From Planctomycetota bacterium (GTDB taxonomy: Bacteria; Planctomycetota; B143-G9), in the NCBI GenBank assembly GCA_034521065.1, contig JAXHMW010000010.1, positions 25,264-89,263 on the forward strand: 64,000 nt of DNA. Reading direction: 5' to 3'. Under the pieces are notes generated by a model. That model saw only the letters and a program-made list of their open reading frames with translations, did not search any database and was not told the DNA's origin. Made by a program: the position numbers and the translations under genes. This document shows positions 45,289 through 64,000 of this stretch, piece after piece; position 1 is the stretch's first letter; every line of letters starts with the position of its first letter.

Positions 45289-46548
45289 TTACACGCCGGA
45301 ATGGGGCAGGATCATATCCGAATAGGTTTCTATGAAAAACCTGTCCGTCATACCGGCCACGAAATCTACCGCAAGTTGTGCGGTTGAGTGTTTTTCTGCT
45401 TCGGCCACATCCTGCGTGACAAACTTGCGAAGAACTCTTCTCCAGTGGTTAATGTTGAAACGAGTGAGTTCGTAATCCGCACCGCCTTCATCGCCCTGTC
45501 TTATCCGTGCGATCTGGCGGGAGATGTTTGCGAGCATCTGCACCATTCCCTGCATTATCTGGGCAGTGGAGTTTCTCGCAGTGCCCTCGTGCTCGTAGAT
45601 GTGCTTGTAGTTGAATTTCATAAGCGAGTTCATAGCCTCGGCGGTTCTGTCGTCAAGGCGCAACACCGGGTCGGATATCCCTGATGAAGAGTTCTCGATG
45701 ACCGATGTGATAAGTGCCCTCATCACGGTTCGGTTCGTCGTTCCAAGTACATCCCGAACGGACTTGTCCAGCATATCGGGTGAAACCACGCCGATGTAAC
45801 ACCCGTCCTCGAAATCTCGCCCAAGATAGGCGATGCGGTCGGAAAGCGCCACAACACAACCTTCGATGGTGACCGGGTTCTCCCCGCTCTTTTGGGAAAA
45901 GTGCCGAGGGTTGGCTCGCGGGCGATATTCGCTCGTATCGCGTTCTCCGTCGTGGTGGACTATTCCATCGCGGACGGCGAAGGTAAGGTTCAGACCGGGG
46001 CGAACGATCCCTTCAACATCCCGTCGTTCGAGCAGGTCAACTATGCGCAGGCTGTGTTGCGCGTGTTTGAAGGTGTAACTCCCTTCACGAGCCCCTTCGA
46101 GTTTCGAGAATTCTTTTCTTATATCGTCGTCCTCGTCACTGTTCGCGAGGTGGTTCACCGCCTGTGCAATGGCCTTTTCGCCGAGGTGACCGAACGGGGC
46201 GTGTCCGAGGTCGTGGCCCATGGCTATGCAGGTAGTAAGGTCAGTGTTCAGGTTCAGAGCCTCTGCGATCGTGCGTGCTGTAGAGGCCACAAGAAGCGAG
46301 TGCTCCATACGTGTGCAGACGTGGTCGTCGGATGGTGCGACGAACACCTGTGTCTTGTTGCGCAATCGCCGAAACGCGAGGCTGTGAAGAATTCGCGTGT
46401 AGTCTCGCTTGAATGCCGTTCGAACGTCACATGGTTCCTCTTCGAACTGCCTTGAGGCGAAGAGTTCATCGGTCGAAAGCGTAGCCGCAGAGCCAGCGAA
46501 CTGGCTGCGTTCGAGCTCTTCGAGTTTCTGTCTTACGGATTTACTCAT
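45289..46548 (-). CDS. dgt: dGTP triphosphohydrolase (HD superfamily)
   Basis: RDYTRILHSLAFRRLRNKTQVF, TRMEHS, GHDLGHAPFGH, GLNLTFAVRDGI, SDRIAY. Confidence 0.9.
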   Translation of the reverse strand: MSKSVRQKLEELERSQFAGSAATLSTDELFASRQFEEEPCDVRTAFKRDYTRILHSLAFRRLRNKTQVFVAPSDDHVCTRMEHSLLVASTARTIAEALNLNTDLTTCIAMGHDLGHAPFGHLGEKAIAQAVNHLANSDEDDDIRKEFSKLEGAREGSYTFKHAQHSLRIVDLLERRDVEGIVRPGLNLTFAVRDGIVHHDGERDTSEYRPRANPRHFSQKSGENPVTIEGCVVALSDRIAYLGRDFEDGCYIGVVSPDMLDKSVRDVLGTTNRTVMRALITSVIENSSSGISDPVLRLDDRTAEAMNSLMKFNYKHIYEHEGTARNSTAQIMQGMVQMLANISRQIARIRQGDEGGADYELTRFNINHWRRVLRKFVTQDVAEAEKHSTAQLAVDFVAGMTDRFFIETYSDMILPHSGV

Positions 46549-47151
46549 AGTTTCCACCAAAATGCTTCTCGGCGAGGTCGGCCATCTGCACGGCGAACTC
46601 GGATACATCCGGGCAGGATTCGAGCTTGCGCCACGCCTCACGGCCGAACGACACGTAGTGGTCACTCGATGGCGGGGTTCTTTCGCCCTTCGCAACTGCC
46701 GTGCGAACGCAGTCTGCAAGTGTCCTGGCAGGGAATGGCAGTATTGGAAGTCGAAAAGACCTGCGACAAGCGGGTTGTCGCAGCCGAACATCAGAGACCG
46801 AGGGTCGGCCTTGTATGCGACGACCGGTTTGCGATGCGACCACGCGATTGCGGCCTCTGAAACCGCGCCCTCGTCCGGTACGCGGCCGTTTAGGTTCATC
46901 ACCAGGGCGTCGCAGCCCTCCACTACCTGAAAAACGTCCATGCAGAATATCAACAGCGAAAGATGCCGGGAAGCCTCTTCCGCCGACATTCCGTTCTCTG
47001 ACAGTTGTTCCTTACAAAGGCGCATCTCTATTCCGTCGCGATGCGGAAGAAAGGTCTCATAGCCGTCGGCCTCAAGTGCCTTTGCGATGGCCGCCATCTC
47101 CGCTCGTTCGGCTTTGTTGAACAACGGGCCGGCACAATAAATCCTTGTCAT
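46541..47151 (-). CDS. Nucleoside 2-deoxyribosyltransferase family protein (apparent frameshift near 46730)
   Basis: IYCAGPLFN, FLPH, DEGAVSEAAIA, KPVVAY, NPLV; a plausible C-terminus in ORF 46541-46843 ends ATGAGTAA over the dgt start. Confidence 0.8.
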
Positions 47152-47686: not shown

Positions 47687-48594
47687 TCATGAGAGTTTCA
47701 CCGCTGGTTCTCCGCACACACACGCCTTTTGGAGGGCGAGAGGATTCGCACGTGCGAATCCGCGAGTCCGACAAAAGGCGGCGCGCTCGGAAGGGGTTTG
47801 GTTGTCGAGCGAGCTGTGACGACGCTTCTTATTGTAGTACTCCTTCCACTTGCCGGCAAGCTTCTTCAACTCGCCGAGGCTGTTGAAAATCTCCATGTTC
47901 AGAAACTCGTCCCTCAAACGGCTGTTGAAAGATTCCACGAACCCGTTCTCCCAGGGGCTTCCGGGCTCGATGAAAAGCGTGCCGACCTCGATTGACGACA
48001 GCCAGTTTCGAACTTTCAAAGCAGTAAACTCCGAACCGTTATCGGAGCGAATGAACTTCGGCGAGCCCCGCTCCAGCATCAGCTTCCCAAGGACATCCAA
48101 GACATCTTCTCCTGTGAAACGGAAGCCCGCTTCCAGCGCGAGACACTCGCGGCTGAACTCATCGACAACCGCAAGGATCTTCACCATGCGCCCGTCCGAA
48201 AGGCGGTCGAAAACAAAATCATAGCTCCACACATCGTTAAGACCATCGGACTCTTCTTCGAACAACTTCCGCTTGAATCGCCTAAAACACCCTTCTTACG
48301 CCGTTTGCGGGGCACCCTGAGTCCTTCGCGCTTCCAGAGCCTGTGGACTCTCTTCACGTTGACGTCCCATCCTTCGCCCTGAAGCTCAGCGGCGATCCTG
48401 CGGTATCCATACCTCGGAAACGACGCGACAAGCTCGTGAATCCGCTTCACAAGAACCTCGTCGGAGTTCCGCTCGACAGGTTCGTACCTCTGGGTGGAGC
48501 GATGCTGCCCGGCCACACAGCAGGCTCGGCGCTCCGAAACCTCGTGCTTGTCCACCACCATGTCCACCGCGTTTCGCCGCCTGGCCGGGCTCAG
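47687..48594 (-). CDS. IS3 transposase OrfB, DDE (extra frameshift near 48260)
   Basis: YGYRRI, WSYDF, SDNGSEF, PGSPWENGFVESFN, YNKKRRHSSL. Confidence 0.9.
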
Positions 48595-48946: not shown

Positions 48947-49257
48947 GGTGTCGAGCATCGACTGCCACACAGCCATTCTAAACAAGCGAACGGGGGATAC
49001 CTGCGATAGCATTGCATCCAGCATCAGTAAGATTGTATTTGGCTGTCCAGCACGGGTGCGAGCCACACAGTCAAGATTAATCATGCATACGGGGGATACC
49101 TGGGATAGTGTTGTCTTCCACCATCAGTAAGATTTAACTTGGCTGCCCGGCACGGGTGCGAGCCGCACAGGCATGTTAAGCAGGCGAACGGGTAATACCT
49201 GCGATAGCGGCCGCCAGCCACCATCAGCACGATTTAAGTTGGGTGCCCGGCACGGGC
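48947..49257 (+). repeat. Tandem array of about 3 units with 100-bp period, each carrying a GCA-loop hairpin
   Basis: Equivalent positions at 49041, 49141 and 49241; hairpins GTCGA-GCA-TCGAC and GCCCG-GCA-CGGGC. Confidence 0.85.
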
Positions 49258-49283
49258 TTTGCCTCGCTCGTTTTCGCATGAAA

Positions 49284-49302
49284 CCAATTATTCGAGGTGG
49301 CC
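49284..49302. mobile_element. IS5-MITE terminal fragment
   Basis: CCAATTATTCGAGGTGGCC. Confidence 0.6.
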
Positions 49303-49308
49303 CAATGT

Positions 49309-50190
49309 TTACTTGAGTTGATACTTAACGACCTTGTCATCAAATGCACAGCAAGCGGTATCGGCAGAAGTCATGTACAGGAATCGAGGAGACTGGTGGA
49401 GTTTGATCAAGCCTGAACGTTGCGAATCCAGAGTTGAGTAGGCGAGATAACATCCCTTCTCTTTATCAAGGTACATCACAGAGCAAAACATGTTACCCAT
49501 TACAGCCGTGGCTTTTTTCGAAGCAACAATGCGCTCTCTTGGTTGCTCTATTGTAGCGATCTGTGTCCTTTTAACTTCATCGCTGTCAACATGAGATGAG
49601 ACAAACTCGAGCTCTCCGTTAGCAACAGTAAATCCGAGTATTCTACTACCATTATTGTAGGTCGGAAGCGGATGCTTAACGGGCTTCCCGGTACTGCCGA
49701 CATATGCAGCATCAACTCTTCTTTTCTCAAGATTAAATCCACGAATCTGGATCAGTCCAGGATAGGAGTTCATTCCATTTGGTTCCTCATCAACTGCAAA
49801 TTGATATGAATGCTTGGAATCATTGGCAGCTACAATTGTGTGCAAAACAGCTTTCCCGGTGCGAACTGGCTCTGTCCAGGCTGAAGTAACCTGACCATCA
49901 ACAGCCGATAAACCAGAATCGCTTCTACAGGACCATCCATCATTGTCGAGAAAGGCTTCATGTTTCCACTTCAGAGACAATCCACGTTCGTGTTCATATG
50001 TGTAGTAGGAAAGAACGTTATCTGAAGTGAGGACGGCAATGTTACCATTCGTGCTGTCATACGCAAATCTTTGAATGAACTTCGAGTCCATCAGCCTGAG
50101 GATTACTCGTGCCTTGTTTCTGGACAAATCAAGCACATTAAGCTCTGTTGAGGAGTCATTGGTGAAGTACATATTCGTGCCATGACACAT
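49309..50190 (-). CDS. Beta-propeller-like hypothetical protein (possibly the frameshifted C-terminal half of 50156-51460)
   Basis: Beta-rich, no signal peptide, overlaps the upstream ORF by 35 nt. Confidence 0.55.
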   Translation of the reverse strand: MCHGTNMYFTNDSSTELNVLDLSRNKARVILRLMDSKFIQRFAYDSTNGNIAVLTSDNVLSYYTYEHERGLSLKWKHEAFLDNDGWSCRSDSGLSAVDGQVTSAWTEPVRTGKAVLHTIVAANDSKHSYQFAVDEEPNGMNSYPGLIQIRGFNLEKRRVDAAYVGSTGKPVKHPLPTYNNGSRILGFTVANGELEFVSSHVDSDEVKRTQIATIEQPRERIVASKKATAVMGNMFCSVMYLDKEKGCYLAYSTLDSQRSGLIKLHQSPRFLYMTSADTACCAFDDKVVKYQLK

Positions 50191-51460
50191 AAGGTCTGGC
50201 GAGGGATATCTGAAAGCTCTCTGTCGCCGTTGCCTGAGAGGGCATCAAAGGTCGACGCAAGTCATACTCGCTAATGTTGTTGTACAAGGCATATCTATCA
50301 GACCGATATTTAACCACGTATTGAGAGTGCCCTTTCTTCCAGATCCTGAAGTATGGTAATGGGTACCTTTTTACAGTACCCGTTGAGAAGTTGATCTCAA
50401 TGCCCAGAGAATCATGCACTGAGAACAAGGTGGGATACTCCTCATCAGCTGCTGCCATGTGGAGTATATAGGATCCGACAGAGAACACTACGGCGGGATA
50501 CAACGGGACGGATATCGCTTTTGCTTTTTCGAAATCACCTTTTGGGACGATAACAACAACGTTCTCATGATCTTCCAACATTGTCGGTGGTAAATACACA
50601 AGTATGATATCCGCTGCTGCGGTTTTGATTATGGGGTGGCAGTTCTCGCTATTTGTGATTTCGAAATCGTCGATATTACTTGCGGCTCGAACGATTGTTT
50701 CAATACCGTGGTACCTTGATATGATATCGAAAGGGTTATCACGTGTAAACAACACTCGGCAGTCTGGAGTAATAGTGTCATTAGATGGCAGGATCCCTGT
50801 TAGTTGTTGGCTTCGGACTGACTTGGAAGTGCATGAGAGATCAGGGAGATTAAGGTAGGTTTCTATTGAGACTCCCCAGTTGGCAAAAGTTCCGCGCTGG
50901 AGATCGAAGAACGACGCTTCCTGTAACAAGAGTAATTCTCTCCCATTGCTGCTCAGGACTACCTGACAATCAAAATGATAGTGGTATTTGTCAATGTCAG
51001 AACTGTTAGGATAAGGACCATCACCTTCTTCATAAGATGGGAAATCGCTAAACTCAACGTCGCATACTCTCTCACCAGACAAAGAGATCCCAAGAACCCT
51101 GATAGATTCAGCGTAACGCAAACCACTATCTTTCATCTTCGGAGCGTAGCAGTAAACAGTGCTGTCCCGAAACCCAAGGAACTCCAAGCCAGATACATCA
51201 TGCTGAAAAGATGATTTCTCCCACTCATCTTCTTTGTTACGATGCCTGATGTTTACAGTGTCTCTTTCAAGATTGAGCCCTACTCCATCCGAAACAGAAG
51301 TCCAATTCCATTCGTTTCCGGGTTCTTCCACGCTGTACAACTCTGTGTAGACGAAATCTTCCCAGATCGAAGGCTTGTTTTCTTCAGACACAGACTCCTC
51401 TGCAGAGAATGCGAGAAACGCCAAACAAAGAAACACTGTGAAGACAAGTGTAAATCTCAT
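50156..51460 (-). CDS. Exported beta-rich hypothetical protein (candidate immunity)
   Basis: AAGGAGG RBS; signal peptide MRFTLVFTVFLCLAFLAFSA. Confidence 0.65.
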   Translation of the reverse strand: MRFTLVFTVFLCLAFLAFSAEESVSEENKPSIWEDFVYTELYSVEEPGNEWNWTSVSDGVGLNLERDTVNIRHRNKEDEWEKSSFQHDVSGLEFLGFRDSTVYCYAPKMKDSGLRYAESIRVLGISLSGERVCDVEFSDFPSYEEGDGPYPNSSDIDKYHYHFDCQVVLSSNGRELLLLQEASFFDLQRGTFANWGVSIETYLNLPDLSCTSKSVRSQQLTGILPSNDTITPDCRVLFTRDNPFDIISRYHGIETIVRAASNIDDFEITNSENCHPIIKTAAADIILVYLPPTMLEDHENVVVIVPKGDFEKAKAISVPLYPAVVFSVGSYILHMAAADEEYPTLFSVHDSLGIEINFSTGTVKRYPLPYFRIWKKGHSQYVVKYRSDRYALYNNISEYDLRRPLMPSQATATESFQISLARPYVSWHEYVLHQ

Positions 51461-51539
51461 TAAGTCCCCTCCTTATTGAGGTGGCCAATTTCGGGCGGCA
51501 ACACCTGCTGCCGCTTGAACCTTTACAGCTTTCTCATAA

Positions 51540-51871
51540 GGCCACCTCGAAAAATCACCGCATCCACAACCCAAGTATACAACGGATGGAGTAGCAATCA
51601 ACCAAAGAGAAGCAAGAATGCTTGAGGGATTTTTCGGCATCGACAACGTACTTGCGAGGCTCGAAAAGAAGGGCTATTTCCTTGCGAAACTGAACGGGGT
51701 CGTTGACTGGGAGGACTTTCGCCCGATCCTTCACCGCATTCGCAAGGCTGAGCGCAAAACGGACGCAAATAGCCGCATAATCCGCCAACTTACCGTCAAA
51801 TGAGCCGCAATCACGCCCCGGAGTCGAAATCTGTGCTTTTAAGACAGAACCGGGAATTGTTCGAGTTAGCC
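51540..51871 (+). mobile_element. IS5-derived MITE, full length (332 bp)
   Basis: GGCCACCTCGAA...TTCGAGTTAGCC; encodes MLEGFFGIDNVLARLEKKGYFLAKLNGVVDWEDFRPIL, an IS5 transposase N-terminus. Confidence 0.88.
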
Positions 51872-51893
51872 AAGTATCCAGTTTTTGGCAAGC

Positions 51894-54092
51894 TCATTTC
51901 GAAAACAGCGCATTTGCGAAGGCCATTAATTCCGTATCTTCGCCATTTGCTTTTAACTGCTCAAGAAATACAAGAAAAGACGATTGCACAATGGACCCTC
52001 TTATGGACAATCCTCTGGCCAGCATAATCCCGCTAAGCTCTTGGACCGCAACTGATGGGGTTAGCCGAGTCAGTTCAAGTTCATCCCCTTTATTCCTTAC
52101 CACAACACCGCGTGTTAGCCAACCGCCGTGTTTTACTACGATTATGTCCGGTTCAACAAACTCAAGGCTGTATAACAACGGCAGTTTGTGATTGGCTACT
52201 GTCTTCAAAGTTTTCAGGTTTACGACGGAGACCTCGGAGGGATTAGTGGAATAGCTTATAGCTGCTTTGTTCTCCCCCAAAATGCCTGCTATATGTCCGT
52301 GTACTTGCAGCAACCGAACAGATTCGGCTGTTTTGGGGGCAAAAAGATGCAGTGCTTCCGAATCGGTTTCGCGTGTAACCACATAGATCGCATCAGCCGT
52401 GCTGAAAAGTACATCACCTCGCAGACCGGCTTTTCTCATGGAACTGAGAACGGAAGCGTTGCAAGCAACCCACTGAGAACATATCTCATCTCGTCGAACT
52501 GCATTTTTCCCGTACTGCACATCCCCCCACTCTGTTACTACGTCAAAACCCCCATCCCTTGCTACCTTCAGCTTTGCACTAAGGCTTGCGTGGATTGTGT
52601 AGTCATTGACTTCCTTTTCGGCGAGCAATACGAGCGACCTGTTGAACCAGTCCCATTTTAGACCCGTGAGGGTGAATTGCTGTGATATGATCGGAGCCGC
52701 TTCGAGCATCACAGAGTTTCCCGTATTACGAATATCAACGGCTATTAACTGACCGAACGTCAGAACATAACAGATTCCAGTCTGCACATCGAGGTCGCTA
52801 AGGACTTCCATTTTCCAGTGTTGGGCGATACGCTTACTTCGTTCAACCCGTTCGGAGCGTATAAATCTCCCTGCATACGCGTCCTCTCCGCTTGTAGGGT
52901 GAATAGGTCGAACCAGTGCCGAATCCTCCACGAATGCGAGACTGGAAGAGTTAACATGTATCACACGACCGAGGAAGGAGTTGTTAGTGACCCGCGGTAC
53001 CGTGGTCACATCCTCGATGATTGAAAGGGACTTCTCTCTCCACAGAAGCAATGCCCCATCTTTATCGAAGTGCACGTGTATATAGCGAGGGTCGCGAGGA
53101 TGCCGCGAAAAAGGCAATGTGCCAGCATCTCGTGGTGTGATCGTCATATCTGGTTCAGGTAACTCTCCAAGGGGCTTATTGTTCGACCCCGGCAGAGAGA
53201 CTTTTAGTAGCATCTCAGCGTCCTCAGTACGTAAAACGCGCACTTCGTACGTTCGTCCCTCTTGGGGCTGCTCTTCGGTCAGGCATATATGTGCAGCAAG
53301 GGAAGCGTCATTGTTAAACGCAACAGAGTAGACTCCAGGCATTTGAAAGGAACGGGGATTCTTCTTTGATAGGTCGAACACCTGAGTAGAGGGAGGCGTA
53401 TTGTCCGAAGTAGTCTTGAAACATGCAAAGACAGGCTGTGCGCTTGAGGCAAGGTAGTAGCGTTGAGAACCTACCGATATTGTTTTCAATTCTTCATTAT
53501 TACGACTGTATCTAAGAAGCACATACGCATTCTTCCCAGAAGTCTCCAAAGCAGTCAGACAGACGTAGCAGGAGGTGTCATCAGCCCAGAGCACCTGCGC
53601 ATGCGCTATCGCAGATTTTCTTCCTTCAATAGTGACAGTCGACGGTAACAAACAGAACTGTTGCAGCGTACGCTCTTCATCAAGGTCAAAGCGCCACACT
53701 TTGCCGGCCTTGGCAACATACCCGGTACTTGATTCCTTCAAGATAAAGGGCTCAGCCTCAGTATCGCCAGGCGACAAGGCAAGGTTACCAATGTAGTCAC
53801 CAGCAAAGTCGAACACCGACTCTCCAACAAGAACGCAGAACTCCGAGACAGCCACCTTTCGCGAAAGGCCGTCAAACTGTCTTGCAAGCAAAGGAGTCCG
53901 CGACAGTAGCAGTTCAGAGTGGATAGCATCCTTGGTGAGTTCAGAGGTTATCTTCTGCAAACTGGAGCATACTGGCCATAGGTCAGCCCTGTTTACTTCC
54001 GCGGGAAGAAAACAAGTGCAGAAGCAGATAAGCAGTAGTAGCAACACTGCAACTGGTTGCACTCTCTGCTTGCAGCTTGTCAGAAGTCCCAT
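51894..54092 (-). CDS. Exported beta-propeller-like protein (candidate immunity, module A)
   Basis: Signal/TM; beta-strand repeats; start overlaps the upstream stop. Confidence 0.65.
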   Translation of the reverse strand: MGLLTSCKQRVQPVAVLLLLLICFCTCFLPAEVNRADLWPVCSSLQKITSELTKDAIHSELLLSRTPLLARQFDGLSRKVAVSEFCVLVGESVFDFAGDYIGNLALSPGDTEAEPFILKESSTGYVAKAGKVWRFDLDEERTLQQFCLLPSTVTIEGRKSAIAHAQVLWADDTSCYVCLTALETSGKNAYVLLRYSRNNEELKTISVGSQRYYLASSAQPVFACFKTTSDNTPPSTQVFDLSKKNPRSFQMPGVYSVAFNNDASLAAHICLTEEQPQEGRTYEVRVLRTEDAEMLLKVSLPGSNNKPLGELPEPDMTITPRDAGTLPFSRHPRDPRYIHVHFDKDGALLLWREKSLSIIEDVTTVPRVTNNSFLGRVIHVNSSSLAFVEDSALVRPIHPTSGEDAYAGRFIRSERVERSKRIAQHWKMEVLSDLDVQTGICYVLTFGQLIAVDIRNTGNSVMLEAAPIISQQFTLTGLKWDWFNRSLVLLAEKEVNDYTIHASLSAKLKVARDGGFDVVTEWGDVQYGKNAVRRDEICSQWVACNASVLSSMRKAGLRGDVLFSTADAIYVVTRETDSEALHLFAPKTAESVRLLQVHGHIAGILGENKAAISYSTNPSEVSVVNLKTLKTVANHKLPLLYSLEFVEPDIIVVKHGGWLTRGVVVRNKGDELELTRLTPSVAVQELSGIMLARGLSIRGSIVQSSFLVFLEQLKANGEDTELMAFANALFSK

Positions 54093-55465
54093 GCTGTCTC
54101 GTCTCCTTCTAACACTGATGAAGTTGCTTCACCTCTTGTAAGTACAGGAACTCGTGTTGTTGCTTTTCTCTTTGCTTTATTGTCTTCTTCATCTTCATCT
54201 TCTTTTTGTGGCTCTTTGTAAGGCTTAAGTGCTTCGCGCATTCTCTCTTTGTCTGAAGTTGTCGCTTCAGGTACTTTTTGTAACTGGCGTTCACTCTTGC
54301 CTTTTACTTTGGGTATCGGTTCATTTACACGCTTATAGTCATCTATAACGTCATACCATAGTTGAAATGAGTCAACATACCGCAGGCTATCTTCTTTGTC
54401 TGCACCTGGATAACTTTGATAGTAACAGACGTACCACTTATAAACATAAGAGGCATTGACGATCTCATCAATGTGCGCATTCTTATTAGAGAACTTATTG
54501 ATGTTTTTACGCATCCTAGCTCCAATAGAGGCATCACCAAAGCCAATTTCTGTTTCATCATCTTCTCTACGGATGCCAATATCTAAATCGAAGTACTTAT
54601 CACCACTGAGGGGCAAATGCACTAAGTCCGGTCTCAGTAGGCCATTCTCATCAGTAGCACTCTCAGCTCGGTCAGAATCTCTATCGGATGATTCGAAAAC
54701 TCGCGGTTTATCATAAGGTTCCTTCATGCCAATTTCAATTGTCTTCAATGCTCCGTCAACAATGCAATCAAGAACAATTTCTATCTCAAGAAGAGTCACT
54801 GTGTAATACACCGTGTGCGTATTTCCTCGATATCTTAGAAAGTGCATTGATCTGTCTCGAAGTACAAAGCTATTAGGTTGCTCTCTGGGCCTGTTATAAT
54901 CCTTGTCCGAAAATAGGACTGCTTTCCCGGGATTAAAAGGAATCTCAGAAAGTGCATCTCCGTTTTTCTTCGCGGTTGGTATCCCGACAAACCCTTCCTC
55001 AATTGACCGTGTTGGCGAACTTCCGCTGCCAGGTATTCCCATAATGTCGTCTTCAGGGAAGCTCCCGGGTATATCAGCGCTTGGGATCATAGGCCCTTGG
55101 TCCGGGCCCGGAGGCTCGATCGGGTCAATCGGTCTGTCGAGAATGTCTTCTTTGCTCGGCTCTCCGTCCATGCTGTCTGAGGCCGGTTCCGGCTCCACGG
55201 TGGGTATGAAGCGGCGTTCCTCGGCGTGATGACGACCCGGCCGGGGAAGCACATCATCCATAGGCTTGACGGGAGGCTCGTGGCCGGGTTCGAATTCCGG
55301 CGGGGTGTAAGGCAGCGTCGGGTCATACGCCGAGCCCGGCAGTCTGCCCACTTTGCCCCTTCTGGTTGTGCTGAAAGCAGCTATTGGATCTACCTGATGC
55401 GCCGAGCCGTCCGGCCCGTATTCAAGATAGTCGTTGAAGTGGTTGTTCCTGTCCCCGTTCGCCAT
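54080..55465 (-). CDS. Polymorphic protein A: conserved Pro/acidic N-terminus plus unique C-terminus
   Basis: AAGGAG RBS; first ~160 aa closely match 58952-60663, then unrelated. Confidence 0.8.
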   Translation of the reverse strand: MANGDRNNHFNDYLEYGPDGSAHQVDPIAAFSTTRRGKVGRLPGSAYDPTLPYTPPEFEPGHEPPVKPMDDVLPRPGRHHAEERRFIPTVEPEPASDSMDGEPSKEDILDRPIDPIEPPGPDQGPMIPSADIPGSFPEDDIMGIPGSGSSPTRSIEEGFVGIPTAKKNGDALSEIPFNPGKAVLFSDKDYNRPREQPNSFVLRDRSMHFLRYRGNTHTVYYTVTLLEIEIVLDCIVDGALKTIEIGMKEPYDKPRVFESSDRDSDRAESATDENGLLRPDLVHLPLSGDKYFDLDIGIRREDDETEIGFGDASIGARMRKNINKFSNKNAHIDEIVNASYVYKWYVCYYQSYPGADKEDSLRYVDSFQLWYDVIDDYKRVNEPIPKVKGKSERQLQKVPEATTSDKERMREALKPYKEPQKEDEDEEDNKAKRKATTRVPVLTRGEATSSVLEGDETAWDF

Positions 55466-55633
55466 GGTTACTCCTTGAATATTCTATCCCTGCGGGGTGC
55501 TTTTTGCGAGTGAAAACTGCCGCACATGGCTGTGTTTCACGGTATCGCGACCTCAAAACGGCGGAGATACTCGAGAATCGTCTTCCTCGACTGTGTTCGG
55601 AATTCCCGGCGCCCCCTGAACACCGGGAGGAGA
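54978..55633. repeat. Direct repeat copy A (upstream region plus conserved N-terminal coding block)
   Basis: Aligns with 60096-60831. Confidence 0.9.
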
Positions 55634-55846
55634 AAGGCGTGTATCGGGTTCGGGCGGGAACAGCCCTCTGTTCACTCGACCACCTCTTGGTGCTACGATG
55701 CCTTGATCTGCCTCGGCCAACCGCCGCCCGCCTTCACTGTCCTGTGTAGGGGCAACCCCTCGCCGATAAAAGACAGTGCTTCGGTTCGCCGCTGAATTGC
55801 GGTCGCCGGAGTGACATATCTAACACGGAAAGTTGCACGGTCTTAT

Positions 55847-55927
55847 GTAGGGGCAACCCCTGTGGTTGCCCAAGCCCATGGAGCATCCCTAAAACAAGAA
55901 AAGGGCAGGCACAGGACCTGCCCCTAC
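55847..55927. repeat. GTAG-type REP doublet (REPIN); partial solo copy at 55746-55760
   Basis: GTAGGGGCAACCCCTGTGGTTGCCC ... GGGCAGGCACAGGACCTGCCCCTAC. Confidence 0.7.
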
Positions 55928-56066
55928 AAAGACTCGCGTACAAACGGGTAAAAACTGACGGAGCGGTGCAAAGGTCCATCTTCACGGTTTGGGTTCTGTG
56001 GTTACCTTGCCTTTTGCTCCCAGTCCTCTGCTTTCTACTCTCAACTCTCTCGCCGCAGGCTCGGCT

Positions 56067-56219
56067 CTATTTCAACTCAACTTCTTTGATGCCGTCGGGA
56101 TAGCCGATATTAACCTTGTCAGGCGATGTCATGAAGATGAAGAGGGGCTCTATGTCAAGGCGGATCATGCCCGCACGCTTGCCGTCAAAGGTGGAGTATA
56201 GCGGAACCTGCTTTCGCAT
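56067..56219 (-). pseudogene. C-terminal remnant of a paralogue of 49309-50190
   Basis: YSTFDGKRAGMIRLDIEPLFIFMTSPDKVNIGYPDGIKEVELK* versus YSTLDSQRSGLIKLHQSPRFLYMTSADTACCAFDDKVVKYQLK*. Confidence 0.6.
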
Positions 56220-56221
56220 CT

Positions 56222-57517
56222 TCACTTGTTGCTGACCAGAACTTCCATTATCTCGAACGGAGCAAAGAGAAACAGACGGTTCCCTTTGCTCGCTTCAACG
56301 AATCCGGAATCTGCATACAGCAGGCCGGGAAACTCCTTGAAATCCTTGTACTTCGATACCGTCTTCCAGTCCAGAGCAAGCACCCATTCAACGGCAGGAT
56401 TTGTCCTGTTGATACCAACAAGATGCGTCCTTTGAAGGTAACGTCCATACACGGGAAACTTGCTTTGCTTGCCGTTACCCGCAGCATAGATGACAACGTC
56501 CTCCATCACTGCGAGTCTCTGCACTAAGACAAGACCGAGACTAAACGAGCCAGTCAGCTTGCCAGAAAATACATCAACCGTGCAATACTCTCCTGAGGTT
56601 CTCTTACGAAAACACTGTTCTGCTGTTTTGGTGTCGAGCAAGGCCAAACGGTGCGCATGCATGAGAAGCTCATCACGACACTCAGAGAGTTTTTCAGCCA
56701 CGGAGAGGTCTGCAAGATGACCTGTGCTGAGGTCAAGAACAAACAGGTCTTCTCCTGCTGTTATCAGTGCTGCATTGTCGTTTTGCTCATGGAAGAAACT
56801 AAAGCTGTTCTTGTCCGCCCTGAACCTCTCTGTTTCCCAAAGCACATCCCCTGAGTCAATATCAACCGCAATGTACTGGTATTCTCGGTTAGATCCTGTG
56901 TGCTCTGTACTCTTGCCTTGAGGTTCTGAGGCATACGAACACAGGAGCTTACGACCAATTGCCCTCACGATCTTGAAGGCGGAATACCTTTGAGGGTCAA
57001 TTGAGATGGTGAACGTATTCCTAAGTTCTTCGTCAATTGCAAGAGTGTACTCTCGAACTTCGCAAGAACCTTCGCGTACAGAAAAGACAAAGCTCAGGTA
57101 CGAGTTGTCAGTGAACATAGTGGGCGTGTTGAGTTGCCGAACCTTCTGCGGAGACCCTTCGGGTACTGCACAAGCCATGAGGTGCTTGTGCACTCGTTGC
57201 TTGTCAAAGTAGAACAACACATCGTCTGCAAGCCGAAATGACTCAAAGCGACCGCGAGGATGGATCTGTAGCACAGGAGTCGCATCTAAGGTGCTGCATA
57301 CGTGGATCGTGCTTTCCCACTCAACTACTATGTATTTCCCGTCTGACGTGATGGGAACATGGTCATCTGTCTTCAGGGATACAAACCGTGTGTTGGGATG
57401 AGTGAAACCAGATCGATTTGTGCGGATAACACTTGCTGCGGTCAATCCATATGAAGTCAATGCGCTTAACAGCATCGCCACACAGACCAGAAAGCAGAGC
57501 ACGTGTTTTGCTTTCAC
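56222..57517 (-). CDS. Exported PQQ-like beta-propeller protein (candidate immunity, module B)
   Basis: GTG start with signal peptide; AVDIDSGDVLW and VLDLSTG propeller motifs. Confidence 0.7.
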   Translation of the reverse strand: MKAKHVLCFLVCVAMLLSALTSYGLTAASVIRTNRSGFTHPNTRFVSLKTDDHVPITSDGKYIVVEWESTIHVCSTLDATPVLQIHPRGRFESFRLADDVLFYFDKQRVHKHLMACAVPEGSPQKVRQLNTPTMFTDNSYLSFVFSVREGSCEVREYTLAIDEELRNTFTISIDPQRYSAFKIVRAIGRKLLCSYASEPQGKSTEHTGSNREYQYIAVDIDSGDVLWETERFRADKNSFSFFHEQNDNAALITAGEDLFVLDLSTGHLADLSVAEKLSECRDELLMHAHRLALLDTKTAEQCFRKRTSGEYCTVDVFSGKLTGSFSLGLVLVQRLAVMEDVVIYAAGNGKQSKFPVYGRYLQRTHLVGINRTNPAVEWVLALDWKTVSKYKDFKEFPGLLYADSGFVEASKGNRLFLFAPFEIMEVLVSNK

Positions 57518-57527
57518 AGATTCGCCC

Positions 57528-58952
57528 TCAATCTTCCTGCGGCAACTCAACTAACCTGTAAGAGAAACCGCTCGTAACAAAGAGCACTTGCCCGTTTATG
57601 CAGAAATGAACGCGCTGAGGCTTCAGCGCCCATTCAAGGTCGAGCTTCCAGAGAACACGCCAAGTGTCCCTTGATATGCTGACAACATGAGTGATTGCTT
57701 CTGATGTACCTGCAAGACAAATCGTTTCTGTTTCCCGTACTGCAATGCGTTTGTGGAAGCAGAACTCTGTATTCAGGCTTGCTACTACCTTCCGATTCTG
57801 TGCTTTCACAACAGACACCTCGTAGCCTGAAAGCTCCCCATTCATGATGCTGCTGTGAGTTCTTTCTGTACTGTACAGAAAATGTCCATCGGCAAGCACC
57901 AATGGGATCCCACTTTCGCCTGTACCGGAAGCGATCCTGCCTGCATCAATGAGATCACCAGTTGACAGGTTACAAAGAACGAGTTCTGAGAATCTGGAGA
58001 CTATCCCTGTTGTATCGCTTCCCGACAGAACCGCACGTGGAGGCGTGACTCCGGGATGCTCCTCAAATTCGTCCGAAACCCATACGAGCTTGCTCTGTGA
58101 TAGGTCGTAGCACTCAACAAAGGACAGTAGTGACTGGCGTTCAAGGTTATTGCGTGAGTAGTTGTGCGTCTCCCGTGACCGATGCAGCAGCAAGCGGTCT
58201 TTGTACATGCAGCTAATTGCAGTCTTTGTGGAGGGAGGAACGGAAGTAAGTTCGATCCTGCCTGTCAGCAGTTTCTTCGCAGGGAACTCGAAAACCGATC
58301 CAGTTACGTTTGGCAGTCTCTTCAGTTGGGAATATGGGTTCTTAAAATCCGTCCAACTCAGAACGTTCTTTTGACCGTCACTGTGAACAGTTAGGACTCT
58401 TATCTTACCATCGAAGAATTGAATATGGTAAACGCCGCTGTCGATCAGCATCTCAATGACCTTCACGTATGCCCATGCTTCAGGCAGTACACAGTACACT
58501 TCCAAAGTGCCGCCCTCATGATGAGCGTAGAAAAGCGCGTTTGAGGCGGAATACACCTGCGATCCTTTAGGCATGCTGGAGATCAAATTCCCTCTTGAGG
58601 TGCCAAATGCACCCAGCGCAGGCGTCCGGGCCTTCTCGTATCGCAGCCTGAAATAGGGTAGCCTTGCCAGAACATATTCACCGCTTTCTGTGACTGCAAA
58701 CCTCGGCACATGAGGCTCGTATGACCCCGCCCTTATTCGCTCGAATGAAGACCACCCCCGCCAGTTGAGCGAGCCTCTATGGACAATACGAGCGGAGCGA
58801 CCTTTAACGCCGGGTTCCACGGTGTGCCGAGAGGCGTCTCGGCAACCCGCTACGAGCAAAGCCAAACACAGGCAAGCGATTGCAACCGATGCCGACGTAT
58901 TGCAAAACAAAGAACGGTTGAGAAGATGCGAACTGCCAGAATATGATGCCAT
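57528..58952 (-). CDS. Lipoprotein, PQQ-like beta-propeller (candidate immunity, module B)
   Basis: Lipobox VAGC; CYDLSQSKLVW and CNLSTGD; TGATG coupling to the upstream gene. Confidence 0.7.
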   Translation of the reverse strand: MASYSGSSHLLNRSLFCNTSASVAIACLCLALLVAGCRDASRHTVEPGVKGRSARIVHRGSLNWRGWSSFERIRAGSYEPHVPRFAVTESGEYVLARLPYFRLRYEKARTPALGAFGTSRGNLISSMPKGSQVYSASNALFYAHHEGGTLEVYCVLPEAWAYVKVIEMLIDSGVYHIQFFDGKIRVLTVHSDGQKNVLSWTDFKNPYSQLKRLPNVTGSVFEFPAKKLLTGRIELTSVPPSTKTAISCMYKDRLLLHRSRETHNYSRNNLERQSLLSFVECYDLSQSKLVWVSDEFEEHPGVTPPRAVLSGSDTTGIVSRFSELVLCNLSTGDLIDAGRIASGTGESGIPLVLADGHFLYSTERTHSSIMNGELSGYEVSVVKAQNRKVVASLNTEFCFHKRIAVRETETICLAGTSEAITHVVSISRDTWRVLWKLDLEWALKPQRVHFCINGQVLFVTSGFSYRLVELPQED

Positions 58953-60663
58953 CAGCGTTTCCGGTTTCTTTGTACAGGAACAACAGGGCTAAACAGAGCA
59001 TCTCGATACTTTCTGTTGTAGTAGTCCACCCACCCGTCGTGGGCCCATGCATCTTGAAACCCTCTCCAATCACCTTCGTAACTCTCAATTGTAGGACGAC
59101 CCTCCAACTTCTTATACACTCTCATACCGTGCTTTCTGTCTCTTGGTTGCTTCTCTCTTTCACTCCTTGGTCGTCCGTCGTTTCTGTCATCGCTCACGGC
59201 ACCGCATGTGGTCGCTCCAGTTTCCTTAGTCACCCGATAGCAAACAGAACCAAGCCCCGCTGCAGCTGAACAACAGGTAAAAGAAACGGTTGAGCGTTCG
59301 CTTACTAACTCTGAGAAAAAGCCTGCGACTGCAGCACCGGAAACCTTCCAGCCATTGTTACCTACACAATAGTACTTCGAATAGTCCCACTCAGGGTTGC
59401 CATCTGCTGCGAATTTCAAAAAAGGTTGTCCACCGTGGGAAGCCCATCGTGACATGCAATAGTGCCCGCTGGTTGCTGAGGCAAACGCAGTCGCCGTCAT
59501 CTTAGCTCTTTGCAGAACATCCATCGCCTTCTGTTCGGTGTTTCCTTTTGAATTCTCGGCACCATCTTCAACCGGTGGTAGCGTCGTGATTGATGCCACA
59601 TGTTCGACGGGTGGGTGGTCAAACAGTGTTCCACCAGACACGTCGCCTTCACCAAAATCGGCACGTTGGATAAATTCATCAGGCATAGAATTGTCAACGC
59701 TCAACAAACCACGGTTCAGTGTATACATTATCTTGTCCATGTTTGAAATCGGCGGTTCAAAACTACAACCTTCAATTGTGTCAGGCTTCTTTGTGTCCCA
59801 AAAGAAGCCTATTACAAGAACCAGAGCCTTCGTGTTCTTTGAGCCACACATAGGACAAACGTAATCGTCAGCTTGCCTTTCAGCAGCCCATGCAGAGACG
59901 TCTTCCCAGTGTAGGTCAAAATCACCAGAAGTTACTACACCGAGGTGAAAGCATGGCCACTGATCTGATTCTGCGCTCTCGGTCGTTTCTTTCGTGACGC
60001 CATAACTATCATTGTGCCGAGAGGCAACAGTATCCTCAAGAATATGCCCACCCCCCTCAAACGGCGGCTGAAGTTTGGGGGCCTTGGGGTCATCCGGTAT
60101 GCCAACAAATCCATCCTCAATTGACCGTGTTGGCGAACTTCCGCTGTTAGGTATTCCCATAATGTCGTCTTCATGGAAGCTCCCGGGTATATCAGCGCTT
60201 GGGATCATAGGCCCTTTGTCCGGGCCCGGAGGTTCGATCGGGTCTATCGGTCTGTCAAGAATGTCTTGTTCGCTCGGTTCTTCGTCCATGCTGTCTGAGG
60301 CCGGCTTCGGCTCCACGGTCGGTATGAAGCGGCGTTCTTCGGCGTGATGGCGCCCCGGCCGGGGAAGCACATCATCCATAGGCTCGACGGGAGGCTCGTG
60401 GCCGGGTTCAAACTCGGGTGGGGTGTAAGGCAGTGTCGGGTCGTACCCCGAGCCCGGCATTTTTTTACCGTTCGCTGCTGAGCGTCCACTGAACAAAAAC
60501 AGCGGAAACTGCTCGCCTGTTTCTGAACTAAGCTCCGAGACCGGCAGCCTGTCCCCTTTGCCCCTTCTGGTTGTGCCGAAAGCAGATATTGGATCTACCT
60601 GATGCGCCGAGCCGTCCGGCCCGTACTCAAGATAGTCGTTGAGGTTGTCTTCCCGTTCGCCAT
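58952..60663 (-). CDS. Polymorphic protein B: conserved Pro/acidic N-terminus plus unique C-terminus (CxxC; SHG...C motif)
   Basis: AAGGAG then ATG at 60663, as in copy A (needs one extra G in a G run); shared block ends GFVGIP. Confidence 0.8.
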
Positions 60664-60831
60664 AGCTACTCCTTAATATTCGACTCACTGCGGGATCTGC
60701 TTTGCGAATGAAAACTGGTGTTCAGTCCGTACTGAACAGGCAATCGCCTCTCAAAACGCCGGAGATACTCGAGAATCGTCTTCCTCGACTGTGTTCGGAA
60801 TTCCCCGGTGCCCCCTGAACACCGGGAGGAG
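60096..60831. repeat. Direct repeat copy B
   Basis: Aligns with 54978-55633 apart from an 87-nt in-frame indel. Confidence 0.9.
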
Positions 60832-60922
60832 ATATGCCGGAATCGGTGGCATTGTGAAGGTTCGAACAAGCGGACTTGTCAGTGCTCTTCTTGCGCCAAC
60901 AAGAGGGTCTGCCTTTGGGACT

Positions 60923-63265
60923 TCAACTCATTTGGCAGCTTTGGATATGGCGAAATTGTGGATTCACTTCTAGTGCCACTCTATCATGATGTTTTCTTCT
61001 TCTAACATTGATGCTGTAAAGACCTGTATTTAGGCGAAGAACCCCTTGTTCCATTTCACAACTGTAATGGATGGCTAAAGATACACTCTTCTTAGATTTC
61101 GCTTCCGCAACTCTAATCTCATTCGTATCAAGGTTTACTGCAACGAAGTAGTGAATGGTAGCGTAATGGCTTTCCCTCGGCACAATAATGGTCTTGAGAG
61201 TGTTAAAGTCTTGCCAAAACCGCAATCGCCCGAATTCTGAATTGATAGCGTTAAATGCGTATCCTATTCCAAAGCCATACCCAGAACCTCTAATGTACGG
61301 ACCGGGTAGAGTTGTAGTGTCGCATGCAAGGAAAAAGACTGTTCGCCCATCCTCTTCTTTATGGTCTCCGTTTTGCATTTCAGGCAAAGACGAACTAACT
61401 GAGTACAAACGCTTGACAATCCGGAAAGTCCTTGCATATAGTCGACCCATTACCATTCCTTTGACAAACGAGAATTGGCTTTTCGTAAGAGCCTCATCGC
61501 TTTTTTTCTCGACAATCAACCGCCAGCCGTCTTCTGCTTTGTTCTCAAGAAAGCCAAGGGAAAGCGTTGCCCCTTTGTGAACTGCAATTGTTGTATCCTT
61601 GCACTCAACTGGATCTTCGTTTGAACCAAAACCGAGCAATTTGCCATCTTTGTAGCACTGAATGACAGAGCACAATTGCCTTACTGCTTGGCACTTATAG
61701 CTTCTCCTCTCATGGTCTGTGATGCTGAAAACAGAGACTTCTCCACTACTGGTTTCAGTACAATGCTCGTATCCAAGGCCGACAACGACCTGGCCTGCAG
61801 ATGCCAATACGTAGCACGGAGAGCTTACTTCCCTTCCGAGCGATCCGATTTCTGTCAAAGCAAAACTGGCATCTTTGAGCACTGCCTTAATAACACTGCC
61901 GCTGGACGTGACTATCGCCACATAAGAATTGTCTTCAGAAACAGTTACAGCAACAGAGCTGCCGTATTGCTCAGGGAGTACAAGATCACAGAATCGGGAC
62001 ATCTTGAGCTTATCACCAAAACGTTGGTAACCCGCATAAACGTAGCACCCAAATGAGGCAGGCCCTGAAGGCAACAATGTGAAGTCCGGGGTAGTACAAG
62101 TCAAACGTTGTTCCGGAATAAACAAGTGCCTTTGTAGTGTGTTTTTCACATTGCCAGCACTGTCCAGAGATACAAGATGCCCCCAGGATGTTCGAGCAAC
62201 TGCTCCATCCCTGTATTCGTGAACTTCCTCAATTCCCGTGTAAGAGGAGACCACCTCACCGCTGGAGTAATCAAACAAATGAGAACAGCCTGCAAATGAG
62301 CCCATTAGCTTGCCGTTGCCAAGACGCACCCCGTCAATCAGTGAATACAGAAGCTCAGAAGAATCAATTCTGACACATCCAACGAATTCACCGCTCTCAG
62401 TGTCAAATCCTGCTGAGAAGAACTGCTCAGGTTTCGTTCTGTTTCCCTGAGCAAAAACGAAACTCACGAGCCCTCTGTCCTCAACTGCATTTACGAGGGA
62501 ATATTGTGCGTTTTCATCATAGAACTTCCCAAGCACAACGGATAGGTCAGCCGAGGTTTCTTTTTGTCCAAATCTTACGTCAACGCGTTCACCATTAAGA
62601 ACTGCGTGAGAGAGGGATTCCTTGTTGTCAAAGTACACTCTTGTGCCAGTTGCACCTTCGATTATCCTGTGATTTGCGAGTCTAAGCTCTGAGACCTGAA
62701 TGTCATAGAGGTGAACTTCCTCACCAGAACGCACGAACAGAATCCGCTTATCTCCTCCTTTGATCATCCGAATCTCAGCGTCATTTGTGTCCACATACTG
62801 AATGAAGTCCTTGAACTTCACTTCAAGTTTCTCATTACGACGATATTGCATACTATGAAGATAGAGATAGATGCCCCGTTCTTCATCCCACCCCCCCCAA
62901 TCGTAGCCCAAAAACGACTTCTTACCAATCTGCCCAAGGAAGTTGTGCGATGTTGGTACGGGGAAACCTAAAGTCCAGCTCGTTACTGTTCTGGTTGAGA
63001 TGTTGTAAAATCTGCCTTTCCTTGATGATTGTGGCACAGAGTCACCAACAGAAAAGAGCAAATCCCCAAAAATATCATCAATAAGGCCGAAACACAGAGA
63101 GCCTGTTGGAGTTAAGTGCTTTGGAGTTTTCTCTTCAGTATGCAGATGTGGATACTGGTCGCAGACTGCATAGAGAAGAACAATAAACAGCAGACTTGCA
63201 GCTACAGACCTGCCAAAGAAACTCCGAGAAGATGTTCTGCCGGCAAAAAAAGAAGAAGTTATCAT
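60923..63265 (-). CDS. Exported beta-propeller-like protein (candidate immunity, module C)
   Basis: AAGGAG RBS 10 nt after the upstream stop; N-terminal TM; LFDYSSGEVV and LVSLDSAGNV motifs. Confidence 0.7.
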   Translation of the reverse strand: MITSSFFAGRTSSRSFFGRSVAASLLFIVLLYAVCDQYPHLHTEEKTPKHLTPTGSLCFGLIDDIFGDLLFSVGDSVPQSSRKGRFYNISTRTVTSWTLGFPVPTSHNFLGQIGKKSFLGYDWGGWDEERGIYLYLHSMQYRRNEKLEVKFKDFIQYVDTNDAEIRMIKGGDKRILFVRSGEEVHLYDIQVSELRLANHRIIEGATGTRVYFDNKESLSHAVLNGERVDVRFGQKETSADLSVVLGKFYDENAQYSLVNAVEDRGLVSFVFAQGNRTKPEQFFSAGFDTESGEFVGCVRIDSSELLYSLIDGVRLGNGKLMGSFAGCSHLFDYSSGEVVSSYTGIEEVHEYRDGAVARTSWGHLVSLDSAGNVKNTLQRHLFIPEQRLTCTTPDFTLLPSGPASFGCYVYAGYQRFGDKLKMSRFCDLVLPEQYGSSVAVTVSEDNSYVAIVTSSGSVIKAVLKDASFALTEIGSLGREVSSPCYVLASAGQVVVGLGYEHCTETSSGEVSVFSITDHERRSYKCQAVRQLCSVIQCYKDGKLLGFGSNEDPVECKDTTIAVHKGATLSLGFLENKAEDGWRLIVEKKSDEALTKSQFSFVKGMVMGRLYARTFRIVKRLYSVSSSLPEMQNGDHKEEDGRTVFFLACDTTTLPGPYIRGSGYGFGIGYAFNAINSEFGRLRFWQDFNTLKTIIVPRESHYATIHYFVAVNLDTNEIRVAEAKSKKSVSLAIHYSCEMEQGVLRLNTGLYSINVRRRKHHDRVALEVNPQFRHIQSCQMS

Positions 63266-63274
63266 CTTGACTCC

Positions 63275-64000
63275 TTAGTTTCCGCTCTGTCGACGTCGAG
63301 CAATGTTAATACGAGATGCTCCCTGAACATTCGCAATCTGCTCCTTCCATTCTGGTCTTGGTTCAGAGTAAATCCGATAGTTCGCAGCAGCATTACCTTG
63401 AGGTTCTTCACAGTGTTCCATGACATATTCCTGACCCGGTGACTTTGGACCAACTCGTGAAGGGCCTTCCCCAGTGTCATGCAGGTTGAAGCTGAAGCCC
63501 GGCTGAAGCATATCTCCAATCTGAAGAGGTGGCATTCTGAATTTTTCATCTAACTCGATTGCGCCATTCTTGATTGAGACTGTATTGTCCACCGGCTCTA
63601 TATTCTCCCACGTTGTTGACCATGCATCGTACATTATCGTGATAGATACTGTCACCGTGTGCTCATCCAGATACTTTGTAATTGCATCCGCGTACTTCTG
63701 CTGTGCGGACAAGCCATTACCATCAGGATCGTCTTGAAAGGAACTAGGGTATATTCTTGTAGCTTTGTAAAAGCACCCAGAGACTGACTGGACCATCGCT
63801 TTTCGTGCGTTTTTATCTGGGAACTTCGCCGCGATATCTCGTAATTCGGGTTCGTCAGGACCAATACAGCCCATACCAGATGAACCAATAGCACCTATCC
63901 TTTCTTGTTTGTCTTGTTTTCCATATTCAAATGTACACTTTGAATCACCATCCACTAATACCTCGCCAAATACCTCCTTGTATTTGACGCACAGATCCCA
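63275..64000 (-). CDS. C-terminal part of a hypothetical protein, probably polymorphic protein C; runs off the window end
   Basis: Frame open to 64000; same position relative to a propeller gene as proteins A and B. Confidence 0.6.
   Translation of the reverse strand, partial: WDLCVKYKEVFGEVLVDGDSKCTFEYGKQDKQERIGAIGSSGMGCIGPDEPELRDIAAKFPDKNARKAMVQSVSGCFYKATRIYPSSFQDDPDGNGLSAQQKYADAITKYLDEHTVTVSITIMYDAWSTTWENIEPVDNTVSIKNGAIELDEKFRMPPLQIGDMLQPGFSFNLHDTGEGPSRVGPKSPGQEYVMEHCEEPQGNAAANYRIYSEPRPEWKEQIANVQGASRINIARRRQSGN

Follow-up and report, generated by a model that had tools for sequence, protein, structure and literature searches.

Orphan toxin/immunity cassettes of contact-dependent inhibition (CDI) and Rhs systems consist of tandem alternative tail-plus-partner sets that share a homology tract with the expressed copy, and copies without a working start could be activated by recombination. 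To our knowledge, very little has been charted of antagonism and self/non-self recognition in Planctomycetota. For colicins, the sections of the literature used here name the TolB beta-propeller as the periplasmic target of the disordered head, which indicates that such heads can work through propellers (PMC12927319). Here we describe a tandem array of three operon modules at the end of a 64,000-nt stretch of DNA from an uncultured Planctomycetota bacterium (hereafter the window; contig C10, positions 25264-89263). The genome assembly comprises 2.69 Mb in 21 contigs and is 77.6% complete, and contig C10 extends 3443 nt beyond the window end. Only two public DNA runs, from one salt-pan metagenome sample and one study, contained the stretch, and no RNA run was listed as containing it.

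All genes of the array lie on the minus strand in three neighbouring modules. Each module is headed by a gene for a T protein (T1, T2 or T3), composed of a constant N-terminal head and a module-specific tail of some 300-445 aa, and continues with one to three partner genes (A to F) encoding 293-780 aa. The transcription order is module 3 (T3, F), module 2 (T2, E, D and an A-like remnant) and module 1 (T1, C, B, A). The array is lineage-private and is not a member of any known family; membership was rejected because, beyond the bare architecture, no testable feature clearly placed it in one. We tentatively read it, with a probability of about 0.4, as a locus built like a polymorphic effector/partner (toxin-immunity or bacteriocin-like) system. 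This reading draws on the constant head joined to unrelated tails, the abrupt DNA break between them, the native GC-content of the head against low-GC tails and partners, selection on the head, coupled genes, and export segments in five of the six partners and in none of the T proteins. Faint homology between D and E, the A-like remnant, nearly identical first 32 codons, contigs joining modules and a variable neighbourhood point the same way. The features, in transcription order, are as follows.

63275-64000, minus strand: 3′ part of the T3 tail; the gene runs on for 965 nt past the window end to an out-of-frame Shine-Dalgarno (SD)-ATG.
60923-63265, minus strand: F, 780 aa, hydrophobic segment at the N-terminus; its start lies 9 nt beyond the T3 stop.
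60664-60846, minus strand: T2 leader; identity is 83% with the T1 leader and 92.6% with one on contig C20.
60095-60663, minus strand: T2 head with a 29-aa insertion; SD-ATG at 60663 out of frame with the body.
58952-60094, minus strand: T2 tail, 380 aa, module-specific orphan C-terminal region; GC 49.6%.
57528-58952, minus strand: E, 474-aa predicted lipoprotein (lipobox VAGC, Cys37); 1-nt overlap with the T2 stop.
56222-57550, minus strand: D, 442 aa, exported, beta-rich and probably propeller-like (weak family scores, poor AlphaFold2 (AF2) model, Foldseek).
56070-56198, minus strand: what is left of the 3′ end of an A-like gene, immediately following D (tblastn, 39.5% over 43 aa, E = 2e-5).
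55901-55925, minus strand: terminator-like hairpin between module 2 and the T1 leader (consensus scan; 10 pairs, 6 of them GC, T-rich tail).
55466-55650, minus strand: T1 leader, conserved and untranslated; AAGGAG 6-7 nt ahead of the ATG.
54977-55465, minus strand: T1 head, 163 aa, constant Pro/Asp/Glu-rich N-terminal region in frame with the conserved SD-ATG at 55465.
54080-54976, minus strand: T1 tail, 298 aa, module-specific orphan C-terminal region; GC 41.4%, GC at third codon positions (GC3) 34.4%.
51894-54092, minus strand: C, 732 aa, predicted to be exported; 13-nt overlap of its start with the T1 stop.
50156-51460, minus strand: B, 434 aa, with a classical signal-like N-terminal segment; 433 nt after C.
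49309-50190, minus strand: A, 293 aa, without an export segment; 35-nt overlap with the end of B.

The constant head and the switched tails

Full-length T1 (54080-55465) has 461 aa. Its residues 4-163 aligned with residues 10-198 of T2 at 141 of 189 identical positions (75%; BLASTP, E = 4e-92). The sole gap was a 29-residue insertion in T2, and no other segment of the two proteins aligned at E < 3. The corresponding DNA (54978-55341 vs 60096-60459) was 92% identical over 364 nt, and this identity ended exactly after the motif GFVGIP. Beyond that point the tails were not detectably related: BLASTP returned nothing, and single-sequence hhalign gave a probability of 0.1% for each of the three pairs. 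The T3 head begins with NDYLEYG, and its open frame beyond position 64000 carries NDYLEYGPDGSAHQVDPI...YDPTLPYTPPEFEPG. The pattern common to the three heads is NDYLEYGPDGSAHQVDPI.AF.T.RRGK..RLP.S.YDPTLPYTPPEFEPG. Strong similarity of T3 to the other two is limited to the first ~60 residues, after which the sequences are alignable faintly at best.

The composition of the DNA changes at the same boundary. In T1, GC-content fell from 59.9% in the head (GC3 63.8%) to the 41.4% of the tail, and in T2 from 57.8% to 49.6%. Overall, heads had 57-60% GC and 60-64% GC3, close to the genome means of 56.1% and 65.7% (794 long open reading frames, ORFs), whereas tails and all six partner genes had 41-51% GC and 34-53% GC3; only 4.3% of the long ORFs lie below 49% GC. 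The compositional break and the similarity break coincide, which speaks for tail-plus-partner cassettes having been exchanged while the head stayed resident. A preliminary description, made from the letters of this DNA, had reported a head of about 160 residues shared by T1 and T2, an abrupt switch after GFVGIP to unrelated and AT-richer C-termini, coupling to downstream genes and a likely third module. These observations were reproduced, and the gene running past position 64000 does carry the same head, with strong likeness limited as stated above.

The head is a real coding domain under purifying selection. Over 120 gap-free codons of T1 and T2, 17 synonymous and 10 non-synonymous differences were counted, corresponding to non-synonymous divergence (dN) of 0.041, synonymous divergence (dS) of 0.254 and dN/dS of 0.16. 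A block of 19 codons around YDPTLPYTPPEFEPG, compared among the three copies, gave dS of 0.24-0.59 and dN of 0.02-0.10. In contrast, the first 32 codons from NDYLEYG are nearly identical DNA in all three copies (dS just 0.04-0.09), as expected for gene conversion.

The very low dS of leader and first 32 codons is also consistent with the main alternative explanation, which we regard as somewhat unlikely: the modules may be non-antagonistic, lineage-specific paralogous envelope operons. These would be old, diverged tandem duplicates in which gene conversion and selection keep leader and head alike, and the T proteins would be scaffolds, regulators or secreted structural partners of beta-propeller proteins in the periplasm or outer membrane. 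Gradual divergence, however, explains neither the loss of all similarity within a few bases of DNA that is 92% identical nor a fall in GC-content of 10-18 points at the same place.

By composition, the head contains 16-18% Pro and 18-20% Asp+Glu and is net acidic (T1: 17.8% and 18.4%, respectively). It falls on the disordered side of the charge-hydropathy boundary and includes two strictly conserved blocks, and it is probably disordered. This composition would be comparable to that of the unstructured translocation domain of colicin E9, as presented in the sections used here (PMC12927319), which would also suit the effector/partner reading. None of T1-T3 has an N-terminal hydrophobic export segment (12-residue Kyte-Doolittle scan), and no convincing membrane helix was found in the T proteins, with one borderline 19-residue window in T3. 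No Pfam or NCBIfam family matched the head at E ≤ 0.1, in agreement with the earlier statement that it has no signal peptide and no recognised RHS, LXG, PAAR, MafB or CdiA motif.

The AF2 single-sequence model of the T2 tail was unusable (predicted local distance difference test, pLDDT, 31.8), and a toxin fold is neither shown nor excluded by it. In the Atlas, the T2 tail has a model of its own (pLDDT 0.42), and its neighbours include short clusters annotated as RHS/PAAR, all of them under the threshold of the tool and taken as a lead only.

Partner genes and their predicted export

Each T gene is tightly joined to its first partner: the T1/C and T2/E pairs overlap by 13 nt and 1 nt, respectively, and T3 and F are 9 nt apart. 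In B, C, D, E and F the N-terminus includes a hydrophobic stretch (12-residue Kyte-Doolittle mean 2.76-3.46), and the lipobox VAGC of E occupies residues 34-37. The partners had previously been described as large exported beta-propeller proteins. The export segments of these five agree with predicted export, and A, without such a segment, departs from it. The coupling of T proteins that have neither export signal nor membrane segment to exported proteins is not what the envelope-operon explanation would lead one to expect.

The propeller part of that description fared less well. D scored 13.3 bits against PQQ_2, under the cut-off of 27.6, and E = 3.9e-4 against PA2928_fam, also under its cut-off. 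Its AF2 model was poor (pLDDT 38.5) and all-beta over residues 190-413. Every top Foldseek match of this poor model was a beta-propeller (tetrathionate hydrolase, BtuG2, YncE, BamB, WD40 and kelch proteins), with E of about 1e-4 to 3e-3 and a template modelling (TM) score of about 0.2. For C, the nearest named Atlas clusters were PD40/WD40/PQQ_2 at 0.86-0.87, a lead only. Blade-like strings of the form 'h-x-h-D-h-x-t-G' were seen by eye in all six partners. A beta-propeller fold of the partners is thus weakly supported by these signals, which fall short of demonstrating it.

D and E are the only detectably related partners (BLASTP, E = 3e-6; hhalign, 65.8%). The remnant of 43 residues after D is 39.5% identical to the C-terminus of A, indicating that modules 1 and 2 once ended alike. 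Taken together, these two likenesses point to an old module duplication followed by fast divergence everywhere save the head. Such traces of whole-module homology are also what the envelope-operon explanation predicts, and the large size of the partners, resembling that of structural envelope proteins, speaks for it as well.

Leaders, start codons and surroundings

Five loci have in common some 70 nt of leader, the SD and the opening four codons (MANG): T1, T2, T3 and two on contig C20. No copy of the leader was found in the genomes of 40 relatives, and an Rfam scan of the whole array and its flanks, leaders included, gave 0 matches. T1 is the sole copy that is intact as assembled, with an SD and an in-frame ATG. 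In T2, the SD-ATG is out of frame with the body, with GGG, 12 nt into the gene, in place of the GGGG of the in-frame paralogues. The span 58952-60663, earlier presented as one coding unit, is 1712 nt long, which is not a multiple of three, and this claim had to be dropped. The start chosen for T2 by the ORF finder, a GTG at 60688, falls inside the leader. The T3 SD-ATG is out of frame by 2 extra bases, located in codons 8-10. No in-frame alternative start codon was found near the SD of T2 or T3. The start defects may be assembly errors, namely indels of 1-2 bases in a low-depth assembly.

No promoter is claimed for the array, where a sigma-70 scan returned 10 matches vs 14.1 in shuffled sequences. 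Inverted repeats that could mark an invertible promoter were absent at the T2 leader, and upstream of T1 only the terminator-like hairpin was found.

Contigs of the two salt-pan runs (X1 and X2) mapped to the array at about 3-6x depth, and no contig of run X3 did. The X1 and X2 contigs possibly derive from the source sample and would then not be independent. One X1 contig of 771 nt leads from the body of T3 into the 5′ end and leader of T1 via a 49-nt identical stretch. By our arithmetic it is in register and would provide T3 with an in-frame start. Similarly, an X2 contig links the leaders of T2 and T1 across 46 shared nt. These module-joining contigs could be recombinants or strain variants. 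Another X1 contig (896 nt) matches the T3 leader, from which it differs by 9 substitutions and 5 gaps, and departs from the assembly at about codon 4 of T3. The T3 5′ end may differ between strains or may be mis-joined in the assembly. The X1 contig on the T3 leader (L009 16215-17059, past the window end) had a depth of 9.0 vs about 5.5.

On contig C20, the sister locus (C20:294000-304000, at about 2830-3280 and 6490-7700) has the same leader at the head of a different family of small acidic ORFs, MANGEDK.HDR.NRTPKLEPEH... In one MANGEDK-type copy, the frame is shifted at the G-run that is also affected in T2. In addition, C20 and the region upstream of T3 share an 847-nt stretch at 92.7% identity; it includes a 121-aa ORF, of which the C20 copy is split. 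From its sequence, the sister locus looks decayed. The orphan 121-aa ORF itself (L005 4375-4740, minus strand, past the window end) lies directly upstream of the T3 leader and matches no family; a putative thioredoxin-like strand-helix pattern with a single Cys was noticed by eye.

These observations bear on the possibility that the whole array is a decaying, horizontally acquired and non-functional island, with T2 and T3 being pseudogenes and the array being lost like the C20 sister locus. The out-of-frame conserved starts, the broken small ORFs and split 121-aa ORF behind the same leader on C20, and the shrinkage of an A-like gene to a remnant of 43 aa would all fit, as would low GC-content, the adjoining IS3 fragment and dispersed repeats on both sides. 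Nevertheless, nine ORFs of 293-780 aa (A-F and the T1, T2 and T3 bodies) are open in DNA of 41-51% GC, the head dN/dS of 0.16 includes T2, and T1 is fully intact. The start defects amount to indels of 1-2 bases in a low-depth assembly and are possibly errors, and in the 771-nt X1 contig an in-frame 5′ end of T1 type is followed in register by the T3 body. We therefore consider decay to be quite improbable.

Under the effector/partner reading, the head would serve as an address by which the protein leaves the producer and/or enters a neighbour, like the unstructured translocation domain of colicins. The tail would be a variable payload acting in the cell envelope, which the exported partners would neutralise or handle in the periplasm. 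The nearly identical DNA at the 5′ ends (leader and first ~40 codons) would form a homology tract for homogenising, swapping or switching modules. Secretion, toxicity, protection and recombinational switching of modules are steps that we infer. Switching by recombination in the leader and first 40 codons would explain both the single in-frame start and the contig with a T1 5′ end and a T3 body. The most far-reaching version, a new interbacterial competition locus with a disordered head as address, envelope-acting payloads, periplasmic beta-propeller antidotes and recombinational expression switching, seems to us unlikely.

To the left of the array, dispersed repeats and an IS3-type integrase-core fragment (47687-48265) were found. 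A low-GC gene at 40398-43808 encodes a 1136-aa AAA_11/AAA_12 helicase with an MTES_1575/DUF2726-type nuclease end, and 45289-47151 encodes a 620-aa nucleoside 2-deoxyribosyltransferase-HD-HD_assoc fusion. This region looks like a variable, conflict-type (defence or mobile) neighbourhood. Between it and the array, just downstream of A (48964-49256), there are three tandem units of ~98-100 bp that are 75-79% alike, with related copies on at least 10 contigs. An exact 43-bp direct repeat (49260-49302 and 1771-1813 nt past the window end) was tried as a pair of attachment (att) sites. It proved to be a dispersed intergenic repeat (37 BLAST hits on 15 contigs) and was rejected as an island boundary or att site. 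No tRNA was found near the array.

Elsewhere in the window, positions 17243-39892 encode surface or secreted repeat proteins: RCC1/Big_2, LRR and PKD proteins and a 1034-aa WG-repeat protein. The same segment contains a C25 (gingipain-type) peptidase with a propeptide and an Ig-like domain. The abundance of such proteins in the window (C25 peptidase, PKD, WG repeat, LRR, RCC1) would suit envelope operons; against these speak the missing housekeeping context and the lack of conservation even within the family (0 of 3 genomes). Elsewhere in the genome, an open frame of 1611 aa with at least 18 RHS-repeat matches (C1:112142-114988), unconnected to the array, would be a conventional polymorphic-toxin candidate, and short RHS fragments occur on contigs C2, C15 and C21.

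Orphan status and comparison with known systems

The preliminary description had proposed collecting further copies of the head with a profile. Three copies were found in this genome, more than the two first seen, and none elsewhere. T1, T2 and T3 were the only hits among 5.8 billion protein clusters and, in an exhaustive HMMER search, among 1.84 billion representatives. The head was not found in the 40 relatives, including 0 of 3 genomes of the family, and an alignment search of metagenome and genome contigs returned no relatives. The T2 and T3 tails found only themselves among the 5.8 billion clusters, within the length bands searched, and the T2 tail had no homologue among 5702 scored candidates. 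The T1 tail had no match in 300 other Planctomycetota genomes, and metagenome and viral contigs yielded nothing closely related to it. In the same 300 genomes, C had one marginal match (E = 2e-4) and the D/E profile had none. None of the ten proteins reached a cut-off in Pfam, NCBIfam, PADLOC or PHROGs, and B and F had no Pfam or NCBIfam family match. A literature search on polymorphic toxins found no description of such a head, although a sequence motif is not reliably searchable in text. With the head family confined to one genome, the earlier notion of a new delivery domain cannot be generalised.

Tail fibres also show a constant N-terminus and a variable C-terminus, followed by accessory genes. 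The T proteins could accordingly be phage- or tailocin-style receptor-binding proteins, with the N-terminus docking to a particle, variable C-terminal binding domains, and the downstream lipoproteins acting as exclusion or assembly factors. We consider this highly improbable: 0 of 10 proteins matched a PHROG, viral contigs contained no relatives of T1, T2 or T3, neither sheath nor baseplate families were found in the 77.6%-complete genome, the window has no phage genes, and a Pro-rich, acidic and probably disordered head is unlike fibre N-termini. A search with Phage_T4_gp19 was uninformative, its control being silent everywhere.

Several results weigh against the effector/partner reading. True polymorphic-system toxin cassettes recur across taxa, and no tail or partner cassette of the array recurs in any database searched. 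Tails and partners match no toxin, immunity or defence family in Pfam, NCBIfam or PADLOC, and PDB sequence searches with T1-T3 and D gave nothing significant. The absence of a toxin or immunity signature from family searches is in turn a point for the envelope operons. Partners of 293-780 aa, up to three per module, are unlike typical immunity proteins, and both structure models, of the T2 tail (31.8) and of D (38.5), are of low confidence. Markers of the type VI secretion system and other contractile machines (VipB/TssC, PAAR, Phage_sheath_1, GPW_gp25) were not found in the genome, which is 77.6% complete. In the assembly, the conserved starts of T2 and T3 are out of frame, which may leave no more than one module expressed. 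The contigs that join modules pass through exact repeats of 46-49 nt at about 3-6x depth and might reflect paths taken by the assembler.

Should the modules prove to be effector/partner pairs, the gain would be an address domain of a new kind, three payload folds not seen before and, in the beta-propellers, a new class of protective partner. They would also illustrate in compact form how a conserved 5′ tract can drive cassette switching. If they are not antagonistic, selection and gene conversion would have frozen the first 160 codons while the downstream sequence was replaced. The family is known from one uncultured genome, and tests would have to be heterologous.

The polymorphic toxin system suggested by the preliminary description stands as far as architecture is concerned (head, switched tails, coupled genes, three copies) and finds no match among toxin or Imm families. 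In the place of the immunity gene typical of such systems, each module has one to three partner genes, large and without an Imm match. Compared with polymorphic toxin systems, as covered by the parts of Zhang et al. (2012) used here (PMC3482391), the array shares the sharp constant/variable boundary, a linked module-specific downstream gene, tandem arrangement and compositional contrast. Unlike in those systems, the head matches no trafficking domain listed there (signal peptide, two-partner secretion (TPS), PAAR/VgrG, WXG/LXG, MafB-N and others), the tails match no Tox/Ntox family, the partners match no Imm family and are 5-10 times larger, and the cassettes are shared with no other organism (PMC3482391).

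With the CDI/Rhs orphan cassettes, the array has in common tandem tail-plus-partner units with a homology tract and copies without a working start. In contrast to them, each array copy keeps a full leader and head instead of a short homology stub, and the intact copy is last, not first, in the direction of transcription. The array genes also lack RHS/YD repeats and a VENN-type motif, and the RHS-repeat ORF of this genome is on another contig. Similarity to BamB/PQQ-like and other bacterial propeller lipoproteins, perhaps also present in A, B, C and F, lies in D and E, which are predicted to be exported or lipid-anchored and beta-rich, with weak PQQ_2/PA2928_fam scores for D. Here the differences are scores of D under curated cut-offs, a low-confidence model and the absence of relatives in the 300 other genomes of the phylum.

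The closest analogue of the array would be a colicin-type bacteriocin. The array differs from E-group colicins in having no detected receptor-binding coiled coil, known cytotoxic fold or small lysis-protein gene; its partners are large and exported, whereas colicin immunity proteins are cytoplasmic with ~85 aa or small membrane proteins; and it is a chromosomal orphan family of a single genome. As far as the sections used here describe them (PMC12927319), E-group colicins share with the array the absence of a signal peptide, a common head with differing cytotoxic ends and a partner gene directly downstream. They also share what would be the equivalent of the head, a disordered N-terminal region with short conserved blocks, which in colicins are binding epitopes (PMC12927319).

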